Positions 15,401 through 55,570 of a DNA stretch of 64,000 nucleotides are shown here, one piece after another (within the stretch, counting starts at the first letter, position 1; the number at the start of each line of letters is the position of its first letter). This DNA comes from Eledone cirrhosa. Its lineage: Eukaryota. Made by a program: the position numbers and the translations under genes. The notes under the pieces were generated by a model, which worked only from the letters and a program-made list of their open reading frames with translations, was not told the origin of the DNA and made no database searches. The stretch spans positions 13,268,001-13,332,000 of the forward strand of contig OZ024757.1 in NCBI GenBank assembly GCA_964016885.1, read 5' to 3'.

Positions 15401-18400
15401 TTTACAGAGTGGACTGGGTGCTTTTTATTGTGACACCTACATAACCACTCTACAGTGAGGGTTGGGAGCTTTTTGTCGTGACACCTACATGATGACCACT
15501 TTACAGTGTGGACTGGGTACTTTTTGTTGTGGCACCTACATGACCACTTTACAGTGAGGACTGGGTACATTTTATTTTAACACCTACATAACCACTTTAC
15601 AGTGCGGACTGGGTACTTTTTGTTGTGACACCTACATGACCACTTTACAGTGTGGATTGGATACTTATTGTTGTCACACCTGCATCACCACTTTACAGTG
15701 TGGACTGAGTGCTTTTGTCATGACACCTATATGACCACTTTACAGTGTGGACTGGGTGCATTTTGTCGTGACACCTACATGACCACTCTACATTGAGGGT
15801 TGGGAGCTTTTTGTCGTGATACCTACATGATGACCACTTTACAGTGTGGACTGGGTACTTTTTGGTGTGGCACCTACACGACCACTTTACAGTGTGGACT
15901 GTGTACTTTTTGTTGTGACACCTACATGACCAGTTTACAGTGTGGATTGGGTACTTATTGTTGTCATAGCTACATGACCACTTTACAGTGTGGACTGGGT
16001 ACTTTTTGTTGCGGCACCTACATGACCACTTTACAATGAGAACTGGGTACATTTTATTTTAACACCTACATGACCACTTTACAGTGCGGACTGGATACTT
16101 TGTATTGTGACACCTACATGACCACTTTACAGTGTGGATTGGATACTTATTGTTGTCACACCTGCATGACCACTTTACAGTGTGGACTGAGTGTTTTTGT
16201 CATGACATCTATATGACCACTTTACAGTGTGGACTGGGTGTTTTTGTTGTGATACCTATATGACCCCTTTACAGTGTGGACTGGGTGCTTTTTATCATGA
16301 CAGCTAAATGACCACTTTACAGTGAGGACTGGGTACTTTTTGTTGTGACACTTACATGACCACTTTACAGTGTGGACTGGGTACTTTTTGTCATGACACC
16401 TACATGACCACTTTACAGTGTGGACTGGGTACTTTTTGTCATGACACCTACATGACCACTTTACAGTGTGGACTGGGTACTTTTTGTTGTGACACCTACA
16501 TGACCACTTTACAATGTGTACTGGGTACTTTTTGTCATGACACCTACATGACCACTTTACAGTGTGGACTGGGTACTTTTTGTCGTGACACCTACATGAC
16601 CACTTTACAGTGTGGATGGGTGCTTTTTGTTGTCACACCTACATGACCACTTTACAGTGTGGACTGTGTACTTTTTCTTGTGACACCAACATGACCACTT
16701 TACAGTATGGACTGGGTACTTTTTGTTGTGACACCTACATGACCACTTTACAGTGTGGATTGGGTACTTATTGTTGTCATAGCTACACGACCACATTACA
16801 GTGTGGATTGGGTATTTATTGTTGTCACACCTACATGAGTACTTTACAGTGTGGACTGAGTGCTTTTGTCATGACACCTACATGACCACTTTACAGTGTG
16901 GACTGGGTGCTTTTTGTTGTGACACCTACATGACCACTTTACAGTATGGACTGGGTACTTTTTATTGTGACATCTACATGACCACTTTACAGTGTGGACT
17001 GGGTACTATTTATTGTGACACCTACATGACCACTTTACAGTGTGGATTGGGTACTTTTTATTGTGACACCTACATGACCACTTTACAGTATGGACTGGGT
17101 ACTTTTTGTCGTGACACCTACATGACCACTCTACATCGTGGGTTGGGAGCTTTTTGTCGTGATACCTACATGATGACCACTTTACAGTGTGGACTGGGTA
17201 CTTTTTGGTGTGGCACCTACACGACCACTTTACAGTGTGGACTGTGTACTTTTTGTTGTGACACCTACATGATCAGTTTACAGTGTGGATTGGGTACTTA
17301 TTGTTGTCATAGCTACATGACCACTTTACAGTGTGGACTGGGTGCTTTTTGTTTTGACACCTACTTAACCACCTTACAGTGAGGACTTTTTGCTTTTTGT
17401 TGTTACTCTTACATGACTACTTTACAGTGTGGGCTCGGTGTTTTGTCATGAAACCTACATGACCATTTTACAGTGTGGACTGTGTACTTTTTGTTGTTAC
17501 ACCTAAATGACCACTTTACAGTGTGGGCTGCGTGCTTTTTGTCGTGACGCCTACGTGAGCAGTTTACAGTGTGAACTGGGTGCTTTTTGTTGGGACACCT
17601 ACATGACCACTTTACAGTGTGGACTGAGTGCTTTTGTCATGACACCTATATGATCAGTTTACAGTGTGTACTGGGTCTTTTTGTCATGACACGTACATGA
17701 CCACTCTACAGTGAGGGTTGGGAGCTTTTTGATGTGACACCTACATGACCACTTTACAGTGTGGACTGGGTGCTTTTTGTCGAGACACCCACATGATCAC
17801 TTTGCAGTGTGGGCTGGGTACTTCTTGTCGTGACACCTACATGATCACTTTACTGTGTGGATTGGGTACTTATTGTTGTCTCACCTACATGACCACTTTA
17901 CAGTGTGGACTGAGTGCATTTGTCATGACACCTACATGACCACTTTACAGTGTGGACTGGGTGTTTTTGTTGTGATACCTATATGACGACTTTACAGTGT
18001 GGACTGGGTGCTTTTTGTCATGACAGCTACATGACCACTTTACAGTGAGGACTGGGTACTTTTTGTTGTGACACTTACATGATCACTTTACAGTATGGAC
18101 CGGGTGTTTGTCATGACACCTACATGATCACTTTACAGTGTGGACTGGGTGCTTTTTGTTGTGACACCTACATGACCAGTTTACAATGTGGACTGGGTGC
18201 TTTTCGTTGTAACACCTACATGACCACTGTACAGTGTGGACTGTGTACTTTTTGTTGTGATACCTACATGAACACTTCACTGTGTGGACTAGGTGCTTTT
18301 TGACGTGACACCTAAATGCCCACTTTACAGTGTGGTCTGGGTCCTTTTTGTCATGACGCCTTCATGACTACTCTACAGTGTGGACTGAGAGCTTTTGTAA

Positions 18401-21400
18401 TGACACGTATATGACCACTTTACAGTGTGGACTGAGTGCTTTTGTCATGACACCTATATGACCACTTTACAGTGTGGACTGGGTGTTTTGTTGTAACACT
18501 TACATAATCACTTTACAGTATGGACTGGGTGCTTTGTCATGACACCTACATAATCACTTTACAGTGTGGACTGGGTGCTTTTTGTTGTGACACCTACATG
18601 ACCACTTTACAGTGTGGATTGGGTACTTTTGTCATAGCACTACATTGTCACTTTACAGTGTGGACTGGGTAATTTTTGTTGTGACACCTACATGACCACT
18701 TTATAATGTGTACTCGGTGCTTTTTGTCGTGACACCTACATGACCACTTTACAGTGTGGTCTGGGTGCTTTTTTTGTGATACCTACATGACCAGTTTACA
18801 GTGTGGACTGGGTGCTTTTTGTTGTGACACATATATGACCACTTTACCGTATGGACTGGGTGCTTTTGTCTTATCACCTGCATGACCATTTTATAGTGAG
18901 CACTGGGTGCTTTTTGTTGTCATACCTACATGACCACTTTACAGTGTGGACTGGGTGTTATTGTTGTGACACCTACATGATCACTTTCCAGTGTGGACTG
19001 GGTATTTATTGTTTTCACGCCTACATAACCACTTTACAGTGTGGACTGGGTACTTTTTCTTGTGACACCTACATGACCACTTTACAGTGTGGACTGGGTA
19101 TGTTTTGTTGTCACACCTGCATGACTACATTACAGTGTGGGCTGTGTACTTTTTGTTAATACGCCTTCATGACTACTTTACAGTGTGGCCTGAGTGATTT
19201 TGTTGTGACACCAACATGACCACTTTACAGTGTGGACTGGTTACTTTTTGTTGTGAAACCTACATGACCACTTTACAATGTGGATTGGGTACGTTTTCTC
19301 ATGACACCTACATGACCACTTTACAATGTGGACTGGGTACGTTTTGTCATGACACCTACCTGACCACCTTACAGTGTGGACTATGTTCTTTTTGTTGTGA
19401 CACCTACATGACCACTTTACAGTGTGGGCTGGGTACTTTTTGTCATGACACCTTCATGACTACTTTACAGTGTGGACTGGGAGCTTTTTGATGTGACACC
19501 TACATGACCACATGACCGTGAGGACTGGGTGTTTTTTGTTGTGACACCTACATGACTACTTTACAATGTGGACTGGGTACTTTCTGTTGAGACCTACATG
19601 ACCACTTTACAGTGTGGACTGGGTACTTTTTGTTGTGACACCTACATGACCACTTTACAGTGTGGAATGGGTACTTATTGTTGTCACACCTACATGACCA
19701 CTTTACAGTGTGGACTGGGAGCTTTTTGTTGGGACACCTACATGACCACATGACCGTGAGGACTGGGTGTTTTTGTCGTGACACCTACAGGACCACTTTA
19801 CAATGTGGACTGGGTACGTTTTGTCATGACACCTACATGACCACTTTACAATGTAGACTGGGTACGTTTTGTCATGACACCTACATGACCACTTTACCAT
19901 GTGGACTGGGTGCTTTTTGTCTTTTGACACGTACATCACCACTTTACAATGTGGACTGGGCACGTTTTGTCATGACACCTACATGACCACTTTACAGTGT
20001 GGACTGGGTACCTTTTGTTGTGAGACCTACATGTCCACTTTACAGAGTGGACTGGGTACTTTTTCTTGTGAAACCTACATGATCACTTTATTGTGAGAAC
20101 TGGGTGCTTTTTGTTGTCATACCTACATGACCACTTTACAGTGTGGACTGGGTGCTTCTTGTCGTGACACCTACATGGCCAATTTACAGTGTGGACTGGG
20201 TACATTTTTTTGTGACACCTACATGTCTACTTTACAGTGTGGACTGGGTACTTTTTGTTGTGATACCTACATGACCACTTTACTGCGTGGACTAGGTGCT
20301 TTTTGACGTGACACCTAAATGACCACTTTACAGTGTGGTCTGGGTCCTTTTTGTCATGACGCCTTCATGACTACTCTACAGTGTGGACTGAGAGCTTTTG
20401 TAATGACACCTATATGACCACTTTACAGTGTGGACTGGGTGCTTTTTGTTGTGACACCCACATGACCACTTTGCAGTGTGGACTGGATAATTTGTGTTGT
20501 GACACCTACATGACCACTTTACAGTGTGGATTGAGTCATTATTGTTGTCACACCTACATGACCACTTTACAGTGTGGACTGAGTGCTTTTGTCATGACAC
20601 CTATATGACCACTTTACAGTGTGGACTGGGTGTTTTTGTTGTTGCGCTTACATGATCACTTTACAGTATGGACTGGGTGCTTTGTCATGACACCTACATA
20701 ATCACTTTACAGTGTGGACTGGGTGCTTTTTGTTGTGACACCTACATGACCACCTTACAGTGTGGACTGGGTACTTTTGTTGTAACGCCTACATGAGCAG
20801 TTTACAGTGTGTACTGGGTACTTTTTATTGTGACACCTACATGACTACTTTACTTTGTGGACTGGGTACTTTTTGTTGTGACACCTACATGACCACTTTA
20901 CAGTGTGAACTGGGTGTTTTTGTTGTGAGACCTACATGATCTCTTTACAGTATGGACTGGGTGCTTTGACATGACACCTACATGACCACTTTACAGTGTG
21001 GACTGGGTGATTTTTGTCATAGCACCTACATGACTACTTTACAGTGTGGACTGGGTGCTTTGTGTCATCACACCTACATGACTACTTTGCAGTGAGGACT
21101 GGGTGCTTTTTCCCGTGACACTTACATGACCACTTTACAGTGTGGACTGTGTACTTGTTGTAATGACACCTATATTACCACTTTACAGTGTGGATTTGCT
21201 GCTTTTTGTCGTGACACATATATGACCACTTTACAGTGAGGGCTGTGTACTTTTTGTCATGACACCTACATGACCACTTTACAGTGTGGACTGGGTACTT
21301 TTCGTTATGACACCTACATGACCACTTTTACAGTGTGGACTGGGTAATTGTTGTTGTGACACCTACATGACTGCTTTACAGTGTGGACTGGGTGATTTTT

Positions 21401-24400
21401 GTGATGACACCTATATGACCACTTTACAATGTGGACTGGGTACGTTTTGTCATGATACCTCCATGACCAATACAGTGTGGACTAGGTACTTTTTGTTGTG
21501 ACACCTACATGACCACTTTACAGTGTGGGCTGGGTCTTTTTGTCATGACGCCTTCATGACTACTCTACAGTGTGGACTGAGGGATTTTTGTAGTGACACT
21601 TACATGACCACTTTACAGTATGTATTGTGTACTTTTTTTTGTGACACCTACATGAACACTTTACAGTGTGGACTGGGTACTTTTTGTTGTGACACCTACA
21701 TGACCACTTTACAGTGTGGACTGGCTACTTTTTGTTGTGACACCTACATGTCCACTTTACAGTGTGGGCTGTGCACTTATTATTGTCACACCTACATGAC
21801 CACTCTACAGTGTGGACTGAGAGCTTTTGTCATGACACCTATATGACCACTTTACAGTGTGGACTGGGTGCTTTTTGTTGTGACACCTACATGACCACTC
21901 TACAGTGAGGATTGGGAGCTTTTTGTCGTGACACCTACATGATGACCACTTTACAGTGTGGACTGGGTACTTTTTGTTGTGACACCTGCATGACCACTTT
22001 ACAGTGTGGGCTGTGTACTTTTTATCATGACAACTACATGACCACTTTACAGTGTGGACTGGGTAATTTTTGTCATGACTCCTACATGAACACTTTACAG
22101 CGTGGACTGGGTACTTTTTGTTGTGACACCTACTTGACCATTTACAGTGTGGATTGAGTTCTTTTGTCATGGCACCTATATTATCACTTTACAGTGTGTA
22201 TTGGGTACTTTTGTTGTGACACTACATTGTCACTTTACAGTGTGGACTGGGTACTTTTTGTCGTGACACCTACATGACCACTTTGCAGTGTGGGCTGGTT
22301 ACTTTTTTTTGTGACACCTACATTACCAGTTTACAGTGTGGACTGGGTGCTTTTTGTTGTGACACATACATGACCACTTTACAGTGTGGACTGGGTGCTT
22401 TTGTCTTATCACCTGCATGACCATTTTATAGTGAGGACTGGGTGCTTTTTGTTGTCATACCTACATGACCACTTTACAGTGTGGACTGGGTGTTATTGTT
22501 GTGACACCTACATGATCACTTTACAGCGTGGACTGGGTATTTATTGTTTTCACGCCTACATAACCACATTAGAGTGCGGACTGGGTACTTTTTGTTGTGA
22601 CACCTACATGATCACTTTACAGTGTGGACTGGGTACTTATTGTTGTCTCACCAACATGACCACTTTACAGTGTGACTGGGTACGTTTTGTTGTCACACCT
22701 GCATGACTACATCACAGTGTGGGCTGGGTACTTTTTGTTATGACGCCTTCATGACTACTTTACAGTGTGGCCTGAGTGATTTTGTTGTGACACCAACATG
22801 ACCACTTTACAGTGTGGACTGGGTACTTTTTGTTGTGACACCTACATGACCACTTTACAATGTGGATTGGGTACGTTTTGTCATGACACCTACATGACCA
22901 CTTTACAATGTGGACTGGGTGCTTTTTGTCTTTTGACACGTACATCATCACCTTACAATGTGGACTGGGTACGTTTTGTCATGACACCTACATGACCACT
23001 TTACAATGTGGATTGGGTACGTTTTCTCATGACACCTACATGACCACCTTACAATGTGGACTGGGTACGTTTTGTCATGACACCTACATGACCACTTTAC
23101 AGTGTGGACTATGTTCTTTTTGTTGTGACACCTACATGACCACTTTACAGTGTGGGCTGGGTACTTTTTGTCATGACACCTTCATGACTACTTTACAGTG
23201 TGGACTGGGAGCTTTTTGTTGTGACACCTACATGACCACATGACCGTGAGGACTGGGTGTTTTTTGTTGTGACACCTACATGACTACTTTACAATGTGGA
23301 CTGGGTACTTTCTGTTGAGACCTACATGACCACTTTACAGTGTGGACTGGGTACTTTTTGTTGTGACACCTACATGATCACTTTACAGTGTGGACTGGGT
23401 ACTTATTGTTGTCACACCTACATGACCACATGACCGTGAGGACTGGGTGTTTTTTGTTGTGACACCTACATGACCACTTTACAATGTGGACTGGGTACGT
23501 TTTGTCATGACACCTACATGACCACTTTACAATGTAGACTGGGTACGTTTTGTCATGACACCTACATGACCACTTTACCATGTGGACTGGGTGCTTTTTG
23601 TCTTTTGACACGTACATCACCACTTTACAATGTGGACTGGGCCCGCTTTGTCATGACACCTACATGACCACTTTACAGTGGACTGGGTACCTTTTGTTGT
23701 GAGACCTACATGACCACTTTACAGTGTGGACTGGGTACTTTTTCTTGTGAGACCTACATGATCACTTTATAGTGAGAACTGGGTGCTTTTTGTTGTCATA
23801 CCTACATGACCACTTTACAGTGTGGACTCGGTACTTTTCTTTGTGCCACCGATATGACCACTTTTCAGTGTGGACTGGGTTCTTTTTGTCGTGACACCTA
23901 CATGACCACTTTACAGTGAAGACTGGGTGCTTTTTTCATGACACCTACATGACCACTTTACAGTGAGGACTGGAGGAATTTTGTCATGACACCTACATGA
24001 CCACTCTACAGTGAGCACTGGGTGCTTTTCTGTTGTGACACCTACATAACCACTTTACAGTGTGGAATGGGTGCTTTTTGTTATGATACCTACATGGCCA
24101 CTTTATAGAGTGTACTGGGTTCTTTTTTGTTGTGACACCTACATGACCACTTTACAGTGTGGACTGGGTACTTTTGTTGTGACACCTACATGATCACTTT
24201 ACAGTGTGGACTTGGTAATTTTTGTTGTGATACCTACATGACCACTTTACAGTGAGGACTGGGTACTTTTTTTGTCCCACCTACATGACCACTTTACAGT
24301 GAAGACTGGGTGCTTTTTTCATTACACCTACATGACCACTCTACAATGAGCACTGGGTGCTTTTCTGTTGTGACACCTACATGGCCACTTGACAGTGAGG

Positions 24401-24650
24401 ACTGGGTGCTTTTTGTCATGATACCTACATGACCACTCTACAGTGAGGACTGGGTGCTTTTTGTCACGACACCTACATGACCACTTTACAGTGTGGACGG
24501 GGTACTTTTCTTTGTTCCACTTTCATGACCACTCTACAGTGAGGACTGGGTGCTTTTTGTCATCACACCTACATGACCACTCTACAGTGAGGACTGGCTG
24601 CTTTTTGTCATGACACCTACATGACCACTTTACAGAGTGTACTGTGTGAT
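6401..24650. repeat. 48-bp tandem satellite, consensus GACACCTACATGACCACTTTACAGTGTGGACTGGGTACTTTTTGTTGT, about 380 copies
   Basis: Continuous tandem array with substitutions and 1-3 bp indels. The 16-aa periodicity (DTYMTTLQCGLGTFCC) in the ORF track confirms the 48-bp period. Confidence 0.98.
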
Positions 24651-25064
24651 ATACTTTTCTTTACACATGTTATACACAAATTCATGCTCTTCAGAAAAGT
24701 GACAGGACTATGAATATTGTGCAAGAAAGGTTTCAATGCCTCCAATCTTGCACCTAGTGAAGAGGCCAGTGTTAGGTGTTTTGTCTTTCAGTGTGTACCC
24801 ACAGATTTTGTGAAGACAACCTTTATGAAAGATATCCAGTTGGTTGACATGTGAGCTTTATGGAGTTCAGGATTCTGTTCCATATAAGGATGTGGTCAGT
24901 ACAACAACTTTATAAACCTGTATATTGGTGTCCAGTTTTATGCCCCTCTTATTCCAAAGGCGATGATGGAGCTTGCCAAATGCACTTATGGCTTAACTTA
25001 TATGATTAATTATCTCATGTGTGTGCCTGTGTGTATATATGTATATATATATATATAATGTTTG

Positions 25065-29122: not shown

Positions 29123-29312
29123 AGGGCGGTGGATTGGCAGTATCGGTATCGGATGCAATGTTTTGCAGCATAGTCATGGCCCTTTACGGTCTGAGTTTAA
29201 ATCCCACCGAGGGTAACTTTGCCTTTCATCCTTATCAGGTTAATAAAATAAAGCACTAGTAATGCACTGGGGTAATTGCTTGCCTTGTGCCAAAAATAGA
29301 AACAATTATTAT
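29123..29312 (+). mobile_element. tRNA-derived SINE, abundant family; other copies at 40185-40350, 53468-53578, 58545-58650 (-) and 61655-61847
   Basis: GGCGGTGGATTGGCAG head, GAGTTTAAATCC B-box, conserved AACTTTGCCTTTCATCC..ATAAAATAAAG body and CCTTGTGCCAAAA.TAGAAACAATTAT tail. Confidence 0.85.
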
Positions 29313-29544
29313 TAGTACAAATGAAAGGTTTAAGCAAAATATCTCTGCTTCCACCGTCAGCAGGATCATCTGAAACTGAGAAAAATGTTTGATGCCACTT
29401 AGAGCAAAAGCAGAGACATTTGGCTTAAACTTTTAATCTGTACTAATAATAAATATTTGCTCCATGGTTTTAAACATATATATATATTGATTTAAAACTG
29501 CACTATCCACAAGTGTTTTTTAGCCTTCATATCATGTTCTCCTG

Positions 29545-29611
29545 TTTTATCTGATGAAAAGACAAATATTATTGCATGATGATGTTTGTTTTTGAAATGC
29601 GCATAATAAAA
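29545..29611 (+). ncRNA. Type I hammerhead ribozyme motif
   Basis: ttttat-CTGATGA-stem II (aaagacaaatat/atgtttgttttt)-GAAA-tgcgca-TA-ataaaa. All three stems pair; stem III is palindromic (ATGCGCAT). Confidence 0.85.
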
Positions 29612-41030: not shown

Positions 41031-41443
41031 CAATATAGACAGTTTTATAAATAAATAGATTTGACATACCGTTCAACATCGACTTGTATTTGAAAAGTTG
41101 ATTTGGCAGTTGTAACCCAACAATTTAAATATAACTTTCCACATATAATATATATATATATATTTATTAAAATAACAGATTAAAGTTTAAGCTTAAACTT
41201 TAATCTGTTATTTTAATAAATATTTGCTCTACGGTTCTTATATATTTGATATATATTTATCCTTATCGAGCCCTCTTTGGATTTTAGTCTTCAAATTTAT
41301 TATTATTACTATTATTATTAATATATATATATGTATATTATATAATATATATAGTATATATATATTATAATATAATATATATATATATTATATAATAGAT
41401 ATATACATAATAGATATATACATATTATAATATATATATTATA

Positions 41444-42541: not shown

Positions 42542-42999
42542 TCTATATATTATATAATGTGATGTTGTCTGTGTGTCCTCATTTTTGCAAAGTCTATACA
42601 AATCCACATTTCTACTCCGATTGACTTCAAACTTGCATATATATATTCCTTGCGGTGTAAAGATATTAATTGCAGCTTTTATTTTTCAATTTTCTGTTGT
42701 TAAAGGGGTGTTAGGCGCCGGTTATCCATCTCCGTCGCGCTCTTATAATATCTGTCTGTATGCCTGCTGTCTGCATTACGACGTTCTGACGAACATTGAC
42801 GACGTATTATGTTCGCTATTATCCGTTCATTGCCAGGGAACGTCTTCCTATAAAAATATCGTCTTCCTGTCTTCCTTCGGTTGCAACGTTTTTCGAAATA
42901 TTTACTTCTGCGTTCGCAGATTGATGTTTTTAGTTTCAGAAGATCCCGTTAAGGGGGAAAACAACGATTCTTTGCTTAAACTTTAATCTGTTATTTTAA
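42542..42999 (+). mobile_element. Helitron-like 5' part (family B) continuing into family-X sequence; second B copy at 43680-43930
   Basis: A|TCTATATA.. GATGTTGTCTGTGTGTCCTCATTTTTGCAAAGTC shared with 43680; no CTAG end seen. Confidence 0.65.
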
Positions 43000-43679
43000 T
43001 CTATATATGTATATATATAAAACTGAGGAAGGATGTATGTATGTATGTATTTATGTATGTATGTGTGTGTGTGTGTATGTGTATGTGTGTGTATGTGTGT
43101 GAAACCCGAGAAGTACTCAACCGATTTTTTTCAAACTTTACATGTGTATTACTTAAGTTTCAGGGAGTGTTATGCACATAAAAAAATTCAACTTTTTATC
43201 CTCTATGCCCGCATTAAATGAAAAACTGTGTTTTTTCAGGTTTTTATTGGTTTTTTGAGGCGTTACGTCAGACCGATTTCCTTGAAATCGTAATTATGTA
43301 TTAGTCAGTCTCTTCTTCATACCGTGAGCAAAGAAAATCCAACTTTTTTATGGCCTAGAGCCCGCATTGGGTGAGAAGCTTCATTTTTTTCAGCTTTTTA
43401 GGGCGTTTTGGTGGCGTTACGTCTAGCCGATTTTCCCGAAATTTCAAGGCATATTATGCACATAAAAAAATTCATTTTTTTTATCCTCGGGCCCGCATTA
43501 AGTGAAAACCTGTATTTTTCCTGCTTCATCGAGGAAAATCTTAGATTATCCAGCCATCAGAGTATTCGGTTTATTTTCTTCACATATTGTCCAGGCATGC
43601 AGTTTTTCTATGATTAGATCTGTTGGGGGCCCGTGTTCCAAAATACCTTATCCCGTGCAACGCCGGGTACCACTGCTAG
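43000..43679 (+). mobile_element. Complete non-autonomous Helitron (family A)
   Basis: A|TCTATATA..AAAACTGAGG start; CCCGTGCAACGCCGGG hairpin; CTAG|T end. Confidence 0.9.
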
Positions 43680-45118: not shown

Positions 45119-45178
45119 TTTCATTCTGAGGATTGAAAGCAAAACCTTTTGCTTTTAAGAAACCACTGGTAAATGGAA
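45119..45178 (+). ncRNA. Minimal type I hammerhead ribozyme in the 5' pseudo-LTR (GUA site after 45171)
   Basis: tttcatt-CTGAGGA-ttgaaagcaaaa/ttttgcttttaa-GAAA-ccactg-GTA-aatggaa. Confidence 0.88.
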
Positions 45179-45397: not shown

Positions 45398-47532
45398 ATG
45401 GACCTTTATGATTTGGATTATTCTATCAAAAACATACCCACTCCTTCCAACACAACATACACCAAAATCCTCATTGATAAAATCGAGCAAGTCGTTAAAA
45501 GAATGAGATGGAAGGCAATGGTTTACGATGGCTATTCAGTGCTGATACTAAAGATAATTTTGACATTAAATCCCGTAAATATCCACCTAGAATTAAAGAC
45601 ATGGCCAACTTCAAATTAGACCTCGTTAATCTAATTAGTGATATCAAATTTCGTAAGTACAATAATAATTTTCAAACTAAACTTTCTCACGATATCTCTA
45701 ATTTTAGAAATTCTACAAACACTTTCGTTCTTTCTGATAAAACCAAAAACCTCTTTGAAGTTAATAGTAATTTGTATAACCAACTTTTAACTAATAGTAT
45801 TACCAATAAATATCAATTAACTAATAATAATAGCTACAATACTATCAATAAAGAAGCTAAAGAACTAGCTAGTTCTTTACAAATAGATAACCGGATTGAA
45901 AGCTTAGCTAAGCGTAAAGCATATATTACCCTTAAAGACCATAAATTGGACTTTACTAATCGACCTAGTTGTAGACTGATTAACCCGGCTAAATCCGAGG
46001 TTGGCCTTGCTAGTAAGAAAATCTTAAGAAAAATAATTCTCCAAATTAGAACTAACACTGCCCTTTCACAGTGGCTAAATACTTCCTCTGTTATTTCTTG
46101 GTTCAATAATATACAAGGTAAAAATAAGTGTAGATTTACGCAATTTGATATTGTCGATTTTTACCCTTCTATTACCGTTTCCTTATTAACTAAAGCCTTA
46201 GATTTTGCAAGACCCTTCATTAATATCTCCAAATTAGAAGAGGACATTATCTTTCATGCCAGAAAAACTTTACTTTTTACTAATGATAATATTTGGGTTA
46301 AAAAGTCAAACCCTGAAAACTCTTTCGATGTTGCAATGGGTTCTTATGACAGTGCGGATGTGTGCGACTTAGTAGGATTATTCCTTCTCCACACACTCAA
46401 AGAGAAATTTCCGTCCCATAATATCGGTTTATACCGTGATGACGGATTAGCAGTTTCTCATACCACCAATGGCCATAATCTTGATAAATTCCGTAAAGAT
46501 TTAATTAGTACCTTTGCTAACCTTAACCTTAAAATTACTATAGATACGAACCTTACTAATGCTAACTTTCTTGATATTAATCTTGATCTACTTACTGCCT
46601 CTTTTAAACCCTATCATAAACCTAATGAAAATCTTAGGTATATACACAAAGAGTCTTGCCATCCCCCTATAGTTTTTAATAATCTTATTCCTAACATTAG
46701 CCGTAGGATTTCTACTTTATCTTCGTCTATAGACATTTTTAATAAAGCCGCCCCTTATTATAATAAAGCCCTTAAGAACAGCGGTTTTACAGAAAATATT
46801 TCTTATTTACCTACTCCCCCCCCCCCTAAAACTAACCATAATAACAGGAAAAGGAAGATTATTTGGTTCACACCCCCCTTCTCTCTAAATGTCAAAACTA
46901 ATGTAGGAAGGAAATTCCTTGAACTATTAGACAAACATTTTCCTCCTATTCATAGATATTATAAGATTTTTAATAGGAATGTAGTTAAGATCAGCTACTC
47001 TTGTTGTCCATCCATGAAATCCAAAATCACCAGTTCAAACCGTACGAGGATAAATCCAGGATGCAGTTGCAGGAAGCCGGATGAATGCCCATTGCAGGGT
47101 AAATGTAACACAAAATCTGTCGTTTATGAGGCTAAAATAACGCCAGTTATCAACAACCAGCCAGCCAGAAGCGAGCGATATGTCGGTATGACCCAGGACA
47201 GGTTTAAAACCAGATTTTACTCACATGTCGCTTCTTTTAAACACTCAGATAAACGAACATCAACGGCCCTCGCAAGTAAGGTATGGGATCTCAAGGATAG
47301 TAATATCCCGTACTCTATTGATTGGTCTATATTAGACCATTCGAGGGAGTACCAAAGGGGCACAAAGAATTGTTCTTTGTGTACCACAGAAAAGTATAGG
47401 ATTTTGCTAAACTTGAGAGACACTTCCGCTTGCCTTAACTCTAAGACTGAGATCTTCAGATGCTGTCCTCATCTGAAATCGCATCTGATCTGTAACTGGA
47501 TTGACACTCCTACGATAAATCAACCGCCTTGA
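45398..47532 (+). CDS. Naiad PLE protein: reverse transcriptase + CxC-x5-C zinc motif + GIY-YIG endonuclease, about 711 aa with one frameshift near 45530
   Basis: N-terminal YSIKNIP..KRMRWKA (ORF 45398) joins ORF 45508: DKT, CRLINPAKSEVG, QFDIVDFYPSI, AMGSYDSA, GLYRDDGL, NFLDI, CSCRKPDECPLQGKC, VVYEA..YVGMT..FKTRF..H, LNSKTEI. Confidence 0.9.
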
Positions 47533-49272: not shown

Positions 49273-49332
49273 TTTCATTCTGAGGATTGAAAGCAAAACC
49301 TTTTGCTTTTAAGAAACCACTGGTAAATGGAA
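49273..49332 (+). ncRNA. Identical hammerhead ribozyme in the 3' pseudo-LTR
   Basis: Same sequence as 45119-45178. Confidence 0.88.
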
Positions 49333-49647: not shown

Positions 49648-51825
49648 TATATTTATTAAAATAACAGATTAATGTTTAAACAAAGAATCGCTGCTTTCAC
49701 CCTTAACGGGATCTTCTGAAACTAAAAAAGTCAATCTGTGAACGCAGAAGTAATTATTTCAAAAAACGTTGCAACCGGAGGAAGACAGGAAGACGATACT
49801 TTGGTTCGTGGAAACGTTCCCTGGCAAAGAACGGACAAAAACGGAGATAATACGTCATTATTTGGAATGGTGAGGACAATTGCACGCAAAGACAAAACCA
49901 CGTAAATTGTATAACTGAAGTCGTAGACTAAAATTCTAACTAGGAAACCGAATGATTCTCGGCTTCAGAGTTAAGAATAAAGTAAATAAAAAACAGAGGT
50001 AATTGAAATTAAATAAATACATACACGCATCCATATACGTACATACACAAGTATACGCGAAAACACTCGCCATTGTTATACAAATACAAGCACGCACACA
50101 AAAAAAAACCCGCACGCACATACAGAACCCACGCATCGCCTGTACCCGCACACATACGAACGTATACGCCAAATACACATAAAAATATATATAAAAATAT
50201 ATATATGTTATTTTTCAATTTGTAAAAAAACCCTCACTTTCTAATATATATATATATAGTAGAATAATCGAGTATCGAAAAATCGGCGCACGAGTTCACG
50301 ATAAACAAAATTCGATATGAGCGGCAGAGTGCTCCATAATTTAGATAAATCAGAGCTATAACTATCGTTAAATTACCGTCACACACAGAACAAGTCTATA
50401 ATCAACCGTACGATCGAAAATTTGCGATCCGGAAGATTCGGGACACTCAGATAAAAAATCTCAATAAATCAATAAATTAAATGAATGTAAAAAGCATACC
50501 CGGACCCGCTAGGAAGATGTTAAATCTAGCTTCTTGGGTTTCTGTAAATCCTTAAACTGTTCTCTATCAGCTCACATAAAAATATATAAGACTTCTAGAT
50601 ATCAGTGGACAGGAAAATTTACTTCTTCAACGAGCTTTGTCCAAACGAATGAAATGGCATAACCCAAGCTAAATACGCACATGGAATTCGGCAAGGGAGA
50701 TAACCTCTACATACGCGAAAAATATTCGGGAAAATGTGGAAATACACATATCGAATAAGAGTGCTCAATAGACATGTTAAAATAAACAGGAGCTATTCAT
50801 CATTTAATAGAATCGACAAAAAATGAACAATAAAATTAACTGGTCAATAGCTAGGTCTAGAACTAAATATAGTAGTAGAATAATCGAGTATCGAAAAATC
50901 GGCGCACGAGTTCACGATAAACAAAATTCGATATGAGCGGCAGAGTGCTCCATAATTTAGATAAATCAGAGTTGTGTGTGTGTGCGTGTATACATATAAT
51001 TAAATAAACGTATATAAATATTTGTTATGGCGTATATATTATATATTCTGGTACATGTGCATTTGGTTATGTGTATACGCGAATTTTGCATCTGTGTGAG
51101 TATGCGGGTTCGTACGTATGTAGGGTGTGTGTATATGTGTACTTTGTGTTTTGGTCGACGTACGTCTACGTACATATGTGTATTTACATATAGGTATGTG
51201 TGTGCGCGCGTTATATACGTATTTATTTATTTATATACGTTTATTTAATTATATGTATACACGCACACACACATATATATATTTTTTAATATATATTTTT
51301 ATGTGTATTTGGTGTATACGTTCGTATGAGTGCGGGTACAGGCGTTGCGTGGGTTCTGTATATGCGTGCATGTTTTTTTTGTGTACGTGCTTGTATTTGT
51401 ATACCTATGGCGAGTGTTTTCGCGTATGCTTGTGTATGTACGTATATGGATGCGTGTATGTATTTATTTAATTTCAATTACCTCTGTATTTTATTTACTT
51501 TATTCTTAACTCCGAAGCCGAGAATCATTCGGTTTCCTAGTTAGAATTTTAGTCTACGACTTCAGTTATACCATTTACGTGGTTTTGACTTTGCGTGCAA
51601 TTGTTCTCACATTATGTTTTTGAAATATTTACTTCTGCGTTCACAGATTGACTTTTTTAGTTTCAGAAGATCCCGTTAAGGGTGAAAGCAGCGATTCTTT
51701 GCTTAAACTTTAATCTGTTATTTTAATAAATATTTGCTCTACGGTTCTTATATATTTGATATATATTTATCCTTATGGAGCCCTCTTTGGATTTTAGTCT
51801 TCAAATTTATTATTATTACTATATA
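49648..51825. mobile_element. Family-X element pair in inverted orientation (49648-50210 minus, about 51255-51825 plus) around a spacer holding a 98-bp direct repeat
   Basis: The arms are reverse complements (e.g. CTAACTAGGAAACCGAATGATTCTCGG). TAGTAGAATAATCGAGTATCG...AATCAGAG occurs at about 50257 and 50873. Confidence 0.8.
51644..51717 (+). ncRNA. Hammerhead-like fold with variant CAGAAGA core (family X)
   Basis: cagattga..agttt-CAGAAGA-tccc gttaa gggt-GAAA-gca gcgattctt tgc-TT-aaact ttaatctg. Copies at 42917, 49665, 55194 and 63848. Confidence 0.6.
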
Positions 51826-52589: not shown

Positions 52590-52960
52590 AAGAAAAGATT
52601 AAAGAATCGATACTTTCAACATTAACGGGATCTTCTGAAACTAAAGAATTTAATCTGTGAACGCAGAAGTAAATATTTCGAGAAACGTTGCAACCGAAGG
52701 AAAACAGGAAGACGATATTTTGGTTCGTGAAGACGTTCCCTGGCAATGAACGGAAAAAGCGAGGATAATACGTCGTTATGTGGACCGAGAAGAACAATTT
52801 CATGCGAAAACAAGATCAAGTTTATGGTATAAATGGAGTCGTTAGACTAATATTCTATTTAATATAATAGAATGATTTCAAGCCCCAGAGTTTAAGAACG
52901 ATGTAAATAAAATTGAAAACGAAAATAACAGAGGTTATTAAAATAGTAAAAGTAAATAGT
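52590..52960 (-). mobile_element. Diverged family-X repeat copy
   Basis: AACGGGATCTTCTGAAACTAA..GAACGCAGAAGTAAATATTTC..GAAGACGATA shared with 49690-49960. Confidence 0.75.
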
Positions 52961-55162: not shown

Positions 55163-55179
55163 TATATATATATATATAT

Positions 55180-55465
55180 ATTTATTAAAATAACAGATTA
55201 AAGTTTAAGCAAAGAATCGCTGCTTTCACCCTTAACGGGATCTTCTGAAACTAACAAAGTCAATCTGTAAACGCAGAACTGGATATTTCAAAAAACGTTG
55301 CAACCGGAGGAAGACAGGAAGACGATACTTTGGTTCGTGGTAACGTTCGCTGGCAAAGAACGGGAAAAAACGAATAATACGTCATTAATAGGAGCGGTGA
55401 AAAACAATTACGCGCAAAGACAAAACCACGTTTATGGTATAAAAGAGGTCGTAGACTAATGTTCT
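55180..55465 (-). mobile_element. Family-X repeat copy abutting (TA)n
   Basis: Near-identical to 49650-49935 and 63838-64000. Confidence 0.85.
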
Positions 55466-55570
55466 CTTAGGTGGTGCATAGAGACGTTCTCTGGCAATGA
55501 GCGAAAAAACGAAGATAATAAGTCATATGTGGAGCGTGGAGAACAATATATATATATATAGTTATTCCTA

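Follow-up and report, generated by a model that had tools for sequence, protein, structure and literature searches.

U4 is treated as near-invariant in hammerhead ribozymes, and the motif at positions 51644-51717 (+) of the window, by which we mean the whole 64,000-nt stretch of Eledone cirrhosa DNA analyzed here, raises the question of what becomes of a hammerhead that has lost it: whether A at core position 4 is decay or the state of a lineage, which element carries the motif, and whether such a motif still cuts. Family X, the repeat family to which the motif belongs, has fixed U4A across tens of thousands of copies and has kept the rest of the fold through ~23% flank divergence. It is a natural experiment on how much the core tolerates and on whether Penelope-like elements need a cutting hammerhead; if the motif cleaves, consensus and search descriptors widen, and if it does not, a non-catalytic role of the fold is indicated. 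Judged from sequence, the motif is a genuine U4A variant, shared throughout its lineage, of the hammerhead already known from Penelope elements.

The original prediction described a complete type I hammerhead, and at 51644-51717 every element is indeed present, as judged from sequence, coordinates and folding. Distal stem I (CAGATTGA at 51644-51651, paired with TTAATCTG at 51710-51717) is separated by a 7-nt U-rich bulge from proximal stem I (AGTTT at 51659-51663, AAACT at 51705-51709), which closes on the core C3-A4-G5-A6-A7-G8-A9 at 51664-51670 (C3 51664, A4 51665, G8 51669). U10.1 (51671) and U11.1 (51683) lie on either side of stem II, CCC/GGG with a GTTAA loop (51672-51682); GAA follows at 51684-51686, with G12 at 51684, and stem III pairs AGCA (51687-51690) with TGCT (51700-51703) around a 9-nt loop, leaving U17 at 51704 and the predicted cut between 51704 and 51705. 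The C3-G8 pair, G5, A6, A9, G12, A13, A14, the A15.1-U16.1 pair and H17 are all as in the canonical type I hammerhead. Position 4 is A, where the canonical CUGA U-turn requires U, and 10.1-11.1 is a U-U mismatch instead of the canonical G10.1-C11.1 closing pair, a mismatch described as tolerated in the text of PMC3088659 and common among Hydra-clade hammerheads.

The pairings for three helices around the core, with helix I open, are present in the family X sequence, though they are not its minimum-energy fold, in which the bulge pairs with the core and proximal stem I is unformed (pair probability 0.07). Forming the junction is predicted to cost 3.95 kcal/mol relative to the ensemble; 46 canonical Hydra-type hammerheads have a median of 5.07 and a range that includes this value; in the sister subfamily X2, two of three copies cost more than the main subfamily X1 (6.2 and 9.3 kcal/mol) and one gave no fold. 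Pair 15.2-16.2 is G-C in family X and C-G in Hydra-clade relatives, flipped with pairing kept. Loop III (9 nt) is non-palindromic and would permit folding as a monomer, unlike most Hydra-clade hammerheads. The original prediction also held that the motif is invisible to standard CUGANGA searches. Rfam hammerhead models do miss it (no match at E ≤ 10), but not because of A4, since canonical CUGA hammerheads within the same window are missed as well.

By itself, the heptamer CAGANGA occurs in the window at chance level (20 found, 16 expected). The motif at 51644-51717 is preceded by a partly deleted 3′ UTR/pLTR of a Penelope-like element (51022-51643, +; 81-96% by blastn to the full unit at locus L031, described below) and followed by post-motif sequence including an optional tail of ~88 nt, the start of the next unit’s leader (51718-51819, +; delimited from copy flanks and 3′ ends), and by a (TA)n target from 51820 (+). 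An inverted, 5′-truncated copy with A4 lies at 49649-50208 (-; C3 at 49718), and pieces 49649-50208 and 51022-51823, 94.7% alike, are probably inverted halves of one insertion and thus not independent. Further X1 copies with A4 lie at 42795-43009 (+; C3 at 42937, stem III partly decayed with one mismatch), 55173-55548 (-; C3 at 55247, intact fold) and 63827-64000 (-; C3 at 63901), and a copy of sublineage X1b at 52601-52859 (-; C3 at 52637), in which TGT replaces GGG and breaks stem II, stem III is damaged and the 3′ arm of stem I is absent (52601-52637). A fold-back insertion at 41160-41345 (+) retains nothing but the tail and the sequence lying 3′ of stem III, and a fragment of the family X RT ORF lies at 62367-63607 (+; residues 105-516, 96% identical to the L031 protein by tblastn and blastn). 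The copy at 29300-29491 (-; CAGATGA core, C3 at 29372), with its short inverted partner at 29407-29491, belongs to X2. A4 is thus found in 7/7 window copies that span position 4, several of them damaged; the expectation of A4 in every copy was borne out, and that of a complete fold in every copy was not (52601-52637 and 42937 are damaged). The relative at 29328-29377 does have CAGATGA and a stem III that pairs, but this stem, said to differ, has the same pairs (AGCA/TGCT) and differs in its loops alone, and its GGAA is decay specific to that copy, its subfamily having GAAA. A 200-kb stretch beside the window holds a single partial copy of family X.

Genome-wide, in an animal genome of 3.0 Gb, a 35-nt motif pattern with N at position 4, matched exactly, gave 13,711 matches and its reversed control 0. 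A4 was present in 13,593 of these (~99%), leaving 118 non-A matches, among which T accounted for 36 of the 100 listed; a looser pattern returned 28,565 matches with CAGA and 982 with CTGA, so most genomic copies do not carry CUGA. Contigs under two other organism labels that cover the motif do so at trace depth only and were left out of the analysis. X2, an older subfamily with its own ORF remnants and DNA 71-78% identical to X1, has A4 in 21/21 pattern matches, all picked by a mismatch-limited regular expression and 4 of them from a pattern that fixed the motif. On these counts A4 is evidently the state of the family and not simple decay, as had been proposed.

Several apparent exceptions dissolved on inspection. 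The 982 CTGA matches suggested a sister family with canonical U4; 22/30 loci proved to be fold-back junctions centered on position 4, and the others (a 23rd being a borderline fold-back) were truncated or single mutants. The quasi-palindrome at the center of these fold-backs is TTC-A-GAA, in which CTG stands on the other strand. Other A4 families with an AC...GT stem III gave 1,592 matches against 598 in the control, and the 30 loci looked at, in three families (one of them a single locus), were sporadic mutants or fold-backs of canonical families. A propagating G11.2A lineage was likewise rejected, as its 426 non-G matches are a mixture of A, T and C that fits decay. Fold-back insertions that pivot on core position 4, where C-N-G is the palindrome center (L180-L209, L243), number roughly 700 copies in family X and also occur in a canonical family; they are a trap for motif counts and may provide a mutational route from U4 to A4.

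Among 14 larger stretches of the genome, L031 revealed the autonomous partner. At L031, two motifs 3,259 bp apart flank an ORF in a partial tandem pLTR structure (unit 3.26 kb); the ORF starts 157 nt after the predicted cut site and encodes an RT followed by a GIY-YIG-type endonuclease. At L031, and likewise at a second locus, L036, a frame of ~709 codons is interrupted once, and there is no unbroken ORF among the frames listed. Both proteins contain RLRWR, an RWK-like motif, and SDKTG, the DKG to DKT change, as in the Hydra clade; by eye, L036 also shows CNCRNRADC (a CxCX5C linker), IVY...YIG, and CDLC...E...N...CKH, in which CxxC and CxH flank E and N. Searches of the element protein against Pfam and PDB sequences returned no relevant match, and the domain assignments are therefore based on motifs. 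Of 8,000 candidates that were scored, 567 are homologues, the best (P0001) 57% identical.

The flanks of 30 close copies show inverted truncated partners, the optional tail and (TA)n targets, and 3′ ends of copies fall into two clusters, one ~25 nt and the other ~115 nt beyond the predicted cut. The position of the motif near the 3′ end, as in a pLTR, and the termination of copies at (TA)n were thus rightly anticipated. By homology, the motif is the pseudo-LTR (pLTR) hammerhead of a Penelope-like element with Hydra-clade protein motifs. The earlier alternatives of a Penelope-related or a retrozyme-like family resolve in favor of the former, and family X is not a retrozyme, as it has its own RT-endonuclease ORF. 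Non-LTR retrozymes share with it a type I hammerhead and a Penelope-like link, according to the text of bioRxiv 10.64898/2026.07.22.740005, but are short non-coding tandem repeats without an ORF of their own, whereas family X copies are dispersed. Typical non-LTR retrozymes occur in the same genome as tandem arrays (L005, L006, L027, L258-L263), in which every unit of ~430 nt contains a canonical type I hammerhead. At L039:4549 (-), a different non-LTR element, with an RT frame open over 848 aa, is inserted among family X copies.

Hydra-clade hammerheads (PMC8557442 File S2; Hydra-1_aJap, Penelope-4_HM) resemble family X in being type I near the 3′ end, in having U on either side of a short stem II (NGA-U...U-GAA) and in H17, and their elements share the RWK-like, DKT and CxCX5C motifs and (TA)n targets. 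The 26 Hydra rows of File S2 all have CUGA, an AC...GU stem III and a 0-3 nt loop; family X instead has CAGA, AGCA/UGCU, a 9-nt non-palindromic loop, a CUU site and a stem I extended past the U-rich bulge, and its unit exceeds the <3 kb usual in the clade. The canonical hammerhead reported as universal in the Hydra clade in the text of PMC8557442 is thus replaced in family X by an A4 core.

Position 4 in relatives indicates the direction of change. CUGA is present in all 26 Hydra rows of File S2 (PMC8557442). In metagenomes, a scan with a single protein found nothing, and an alignment-based scan gave 77 loci with related ORFs, from the best 80 of 483; a hammerhead descriptor found motifs in 54/77 (reversed control, 1 match), and the cores at these 54 loci, some of them near-duplicates, comprised 64 CUGA, 1 CCGA, 1 U3-A8 and 0 CAGA. 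A TAGA core inside an ORF is probably spurious. The U3-A8 core, TTGATAA at the Hydra-type locus L151:1938, is a known variant. Given CUGA in all 26 rows and the absence of CAGA from the metagenome relatives, A4 is, as far as these comparisons reach, the derived state.

Natural core variants described in PMC3088659 and PMC4209133 are, like family X, single core departures in an otherwise complete fold. Those named in the text of the two papers are U3-A8, U4C, A6C, insertions and U15.1-A16.1; U4A is absent there, PMC4209133 marks exceptional core changes in figures, and a search of the running text of open PMC and bioRxiv papers found no natural U4A hammerhead. Change at position 4 is tolerated in other cases: a viroid U4C variant works in vivo (text of PMC3088659). 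Family X differs from these published cases in the fixation of its variant, which extends over tens of thousands of copies. Another repeat family of the same genome has a fixed U4C variant, a CCGA core in 5/5 copies seen, with a long stem II and a variable loop (L003:1042(-), L019:1011(+), L027, L038, L202).

Whether the fold mattered after U4 was lost can be judged from X1 and X2. Column majorities were taken from 20 X1 and 21 X2 copies chosen for alignable upstream sequence, and columns with a majority <60%, two of them in the motif, were dropped. No stem or core column was substituted (0/51, with two further U-run indel columns), against 8/21 in loops, bulge and N7 (38%) and 42/185 in flanks (23%; Fisher p ~1e-5 for the contrast with loops and for that with flanks). 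N7, the free position, is the sole core position changed. When 114 copies were projected by BLAST, the result agreed, loops having 6 changes. The 11 core bases that are unpaired or fixed would by themselves all stay invariant at the flank rate with P = 0.06, and no stem pair showed a compensatory change in the one subfamily pair compared. The claimed conservation across subfamilies is thus upheld in its columns and finds no covarying pair beside it; from the contrast with loops and flanks, the fold appears to have stayed under selection after U4A.

G12 and G8 are the catalytic residues of the hammerhead, and in family X both are intact, as is the C3-G8 pair. A4 removes the imino group of the CUGA U-turn, and the CUU site perhaps slows cleavage. 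We favor, with a probability of roughly one half, a slow and probably protein-assisted ribozyme that would cut after U17 (51704). The pLTR transcript would fold in vivo into the type I junction, and G12/G8 chemistry would cut after U17, at a rate lowered by the missing U4 imino contact and, perhaps, by the CUU site; the element protein would probably be needed to assist. Cleavage may free the unit from read-through tandem transcripts, and the template for reverse transcription would be uncut or re-ligated RNA, given that the motif is whole in most copies and is followed in them by downstream sequence. With such a template, a slow ribozyme would cost little.

A parallel is offered by the anole Poseidon element PAc, which, in the text of PMC11167929, has a pLTR hammerhead that cuts only with protein, uses uncut RNA as template (as suggested here for family X), and owes its optional tail to RT starting at two internal sites. 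The two clusters of 3′ ends in family X match this pattern. The PAc hammerhead differs in its canonical core, in its clade and in overlapping the start codon, whereas the family X motif lies 157 nt upstream of the ATG. U4 contacts the A6-N7 phosphate (text of PMC3088659), and, as a point against activity, in a deep mutational scan of a type III construct all CUGA single mutants had low activity, the C3-G8 swap being the exception (text of PMC9901934). The spread of X1b despite its broken stem II and the absence of a covarying pair between X1 and X2 also weigh against activity. At the predicted cut site, fold-back junctions are in no clear excess; near it there are 362 such sites, in family X, and 15 of the first 50 lie at a quasi-palindrome, TTAAA-C-TTTAA, that spans it, so they may be explained by microhomology. 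One might speculate that U4A acts as a brake, the role that dimer dependence plays in other Hydra-clade hammerheads, but another family here combines a long loop III with canonical U4.

The motif may instead no longer cut, its hammerhead-shaped fold being kept as a structural signal, for example for protein binding, for placing the two downstream RT start sites, or for expression of the next unit. We regard this as a tentative but serious possibility. Stems conserved between X1 and X2 are what it would predict, the clustering of 3′ ends at fixed distances from the motif agrees with it, and the weakness of CUGA mutants is compounded by normal in vitro insertion of the anole element with catalytic hammerhead mutants (text of PMC11167929). 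Two departures from the clade norm, A4 and the CUU site, also occur together. Yet a purely structural signal would not readily account for core bases that are free of secondary-structure constraint and stayed unchanged while N7 changed; X1b was copied without stem II, and the protein-binding region mapped in the anole element lies inside the ORF (text of PMC11167929).

Efficient cleavage with A4, in which contacts between loop II and the bulge, or the element protein, restore an active site that lacks the U-turn imino group, seems unlikely. If true, it would broaden the consensus for the core and bring to light retroelement ribozymes of a class passed over by CUGANGA searches.

It is improbable that the motif is a neutral relic, inactivated by U4A and retained in an element that can do without it. 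X1b speaks for this reading, having spread although GGG to TGT breaks two stem II pairs: it has 230 dispersed exact matches, 28/30 loci share a further upstream marker, 7/30 form a composite, and 18/30 share one 3′ variant at their ends, which mostly lie at the usual (TA)n site. Hammerheads are absent from Naiad elements, which thrive all the same (text of PMC8557442), fold-backs that turn CTG into CAG at position 4 offer an easy mutational route, and the comparison is of two subfamilies only. But X1b makes up <1% of copies and looks non-autonomous, because a family ORF lies within 1.5 kb at just 1/30 loci, a locus without the X1b markers, and a relic would hardly hold 51 constrained columns unchanged while flanks and loops diverged. 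Conservation at the DNA level, of a promoter (pLTRs carry promoters; text of PMC6765202) or an endonuclease site with the hammerhead fold incidental, is scarcely credible, as it is precisely N7, loop II, loop III and the bulge that have changed, and the position and layout match hammerheads of related elements.

Another Hydra-type Penelope family is also present in the window, at 45126 and 45398-47472 (+), and has a further motif at 49280 (+). Its protein is ~42% identical, and its hammerhead has the canonical CUGAGGA core and a stem II of 11 bp. Five further canonical CUGA hammerheads of other families lie at 29551 (+), 30270 (-), 41022 (-), 54946 (-) and 61268 (-); Rfam found 0/5 of these. 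Positions 1-6300 and 6300-25000 are adjacent satellite arrays with 38-nt units, of strong GC skew, and 48-nt units, respectively.
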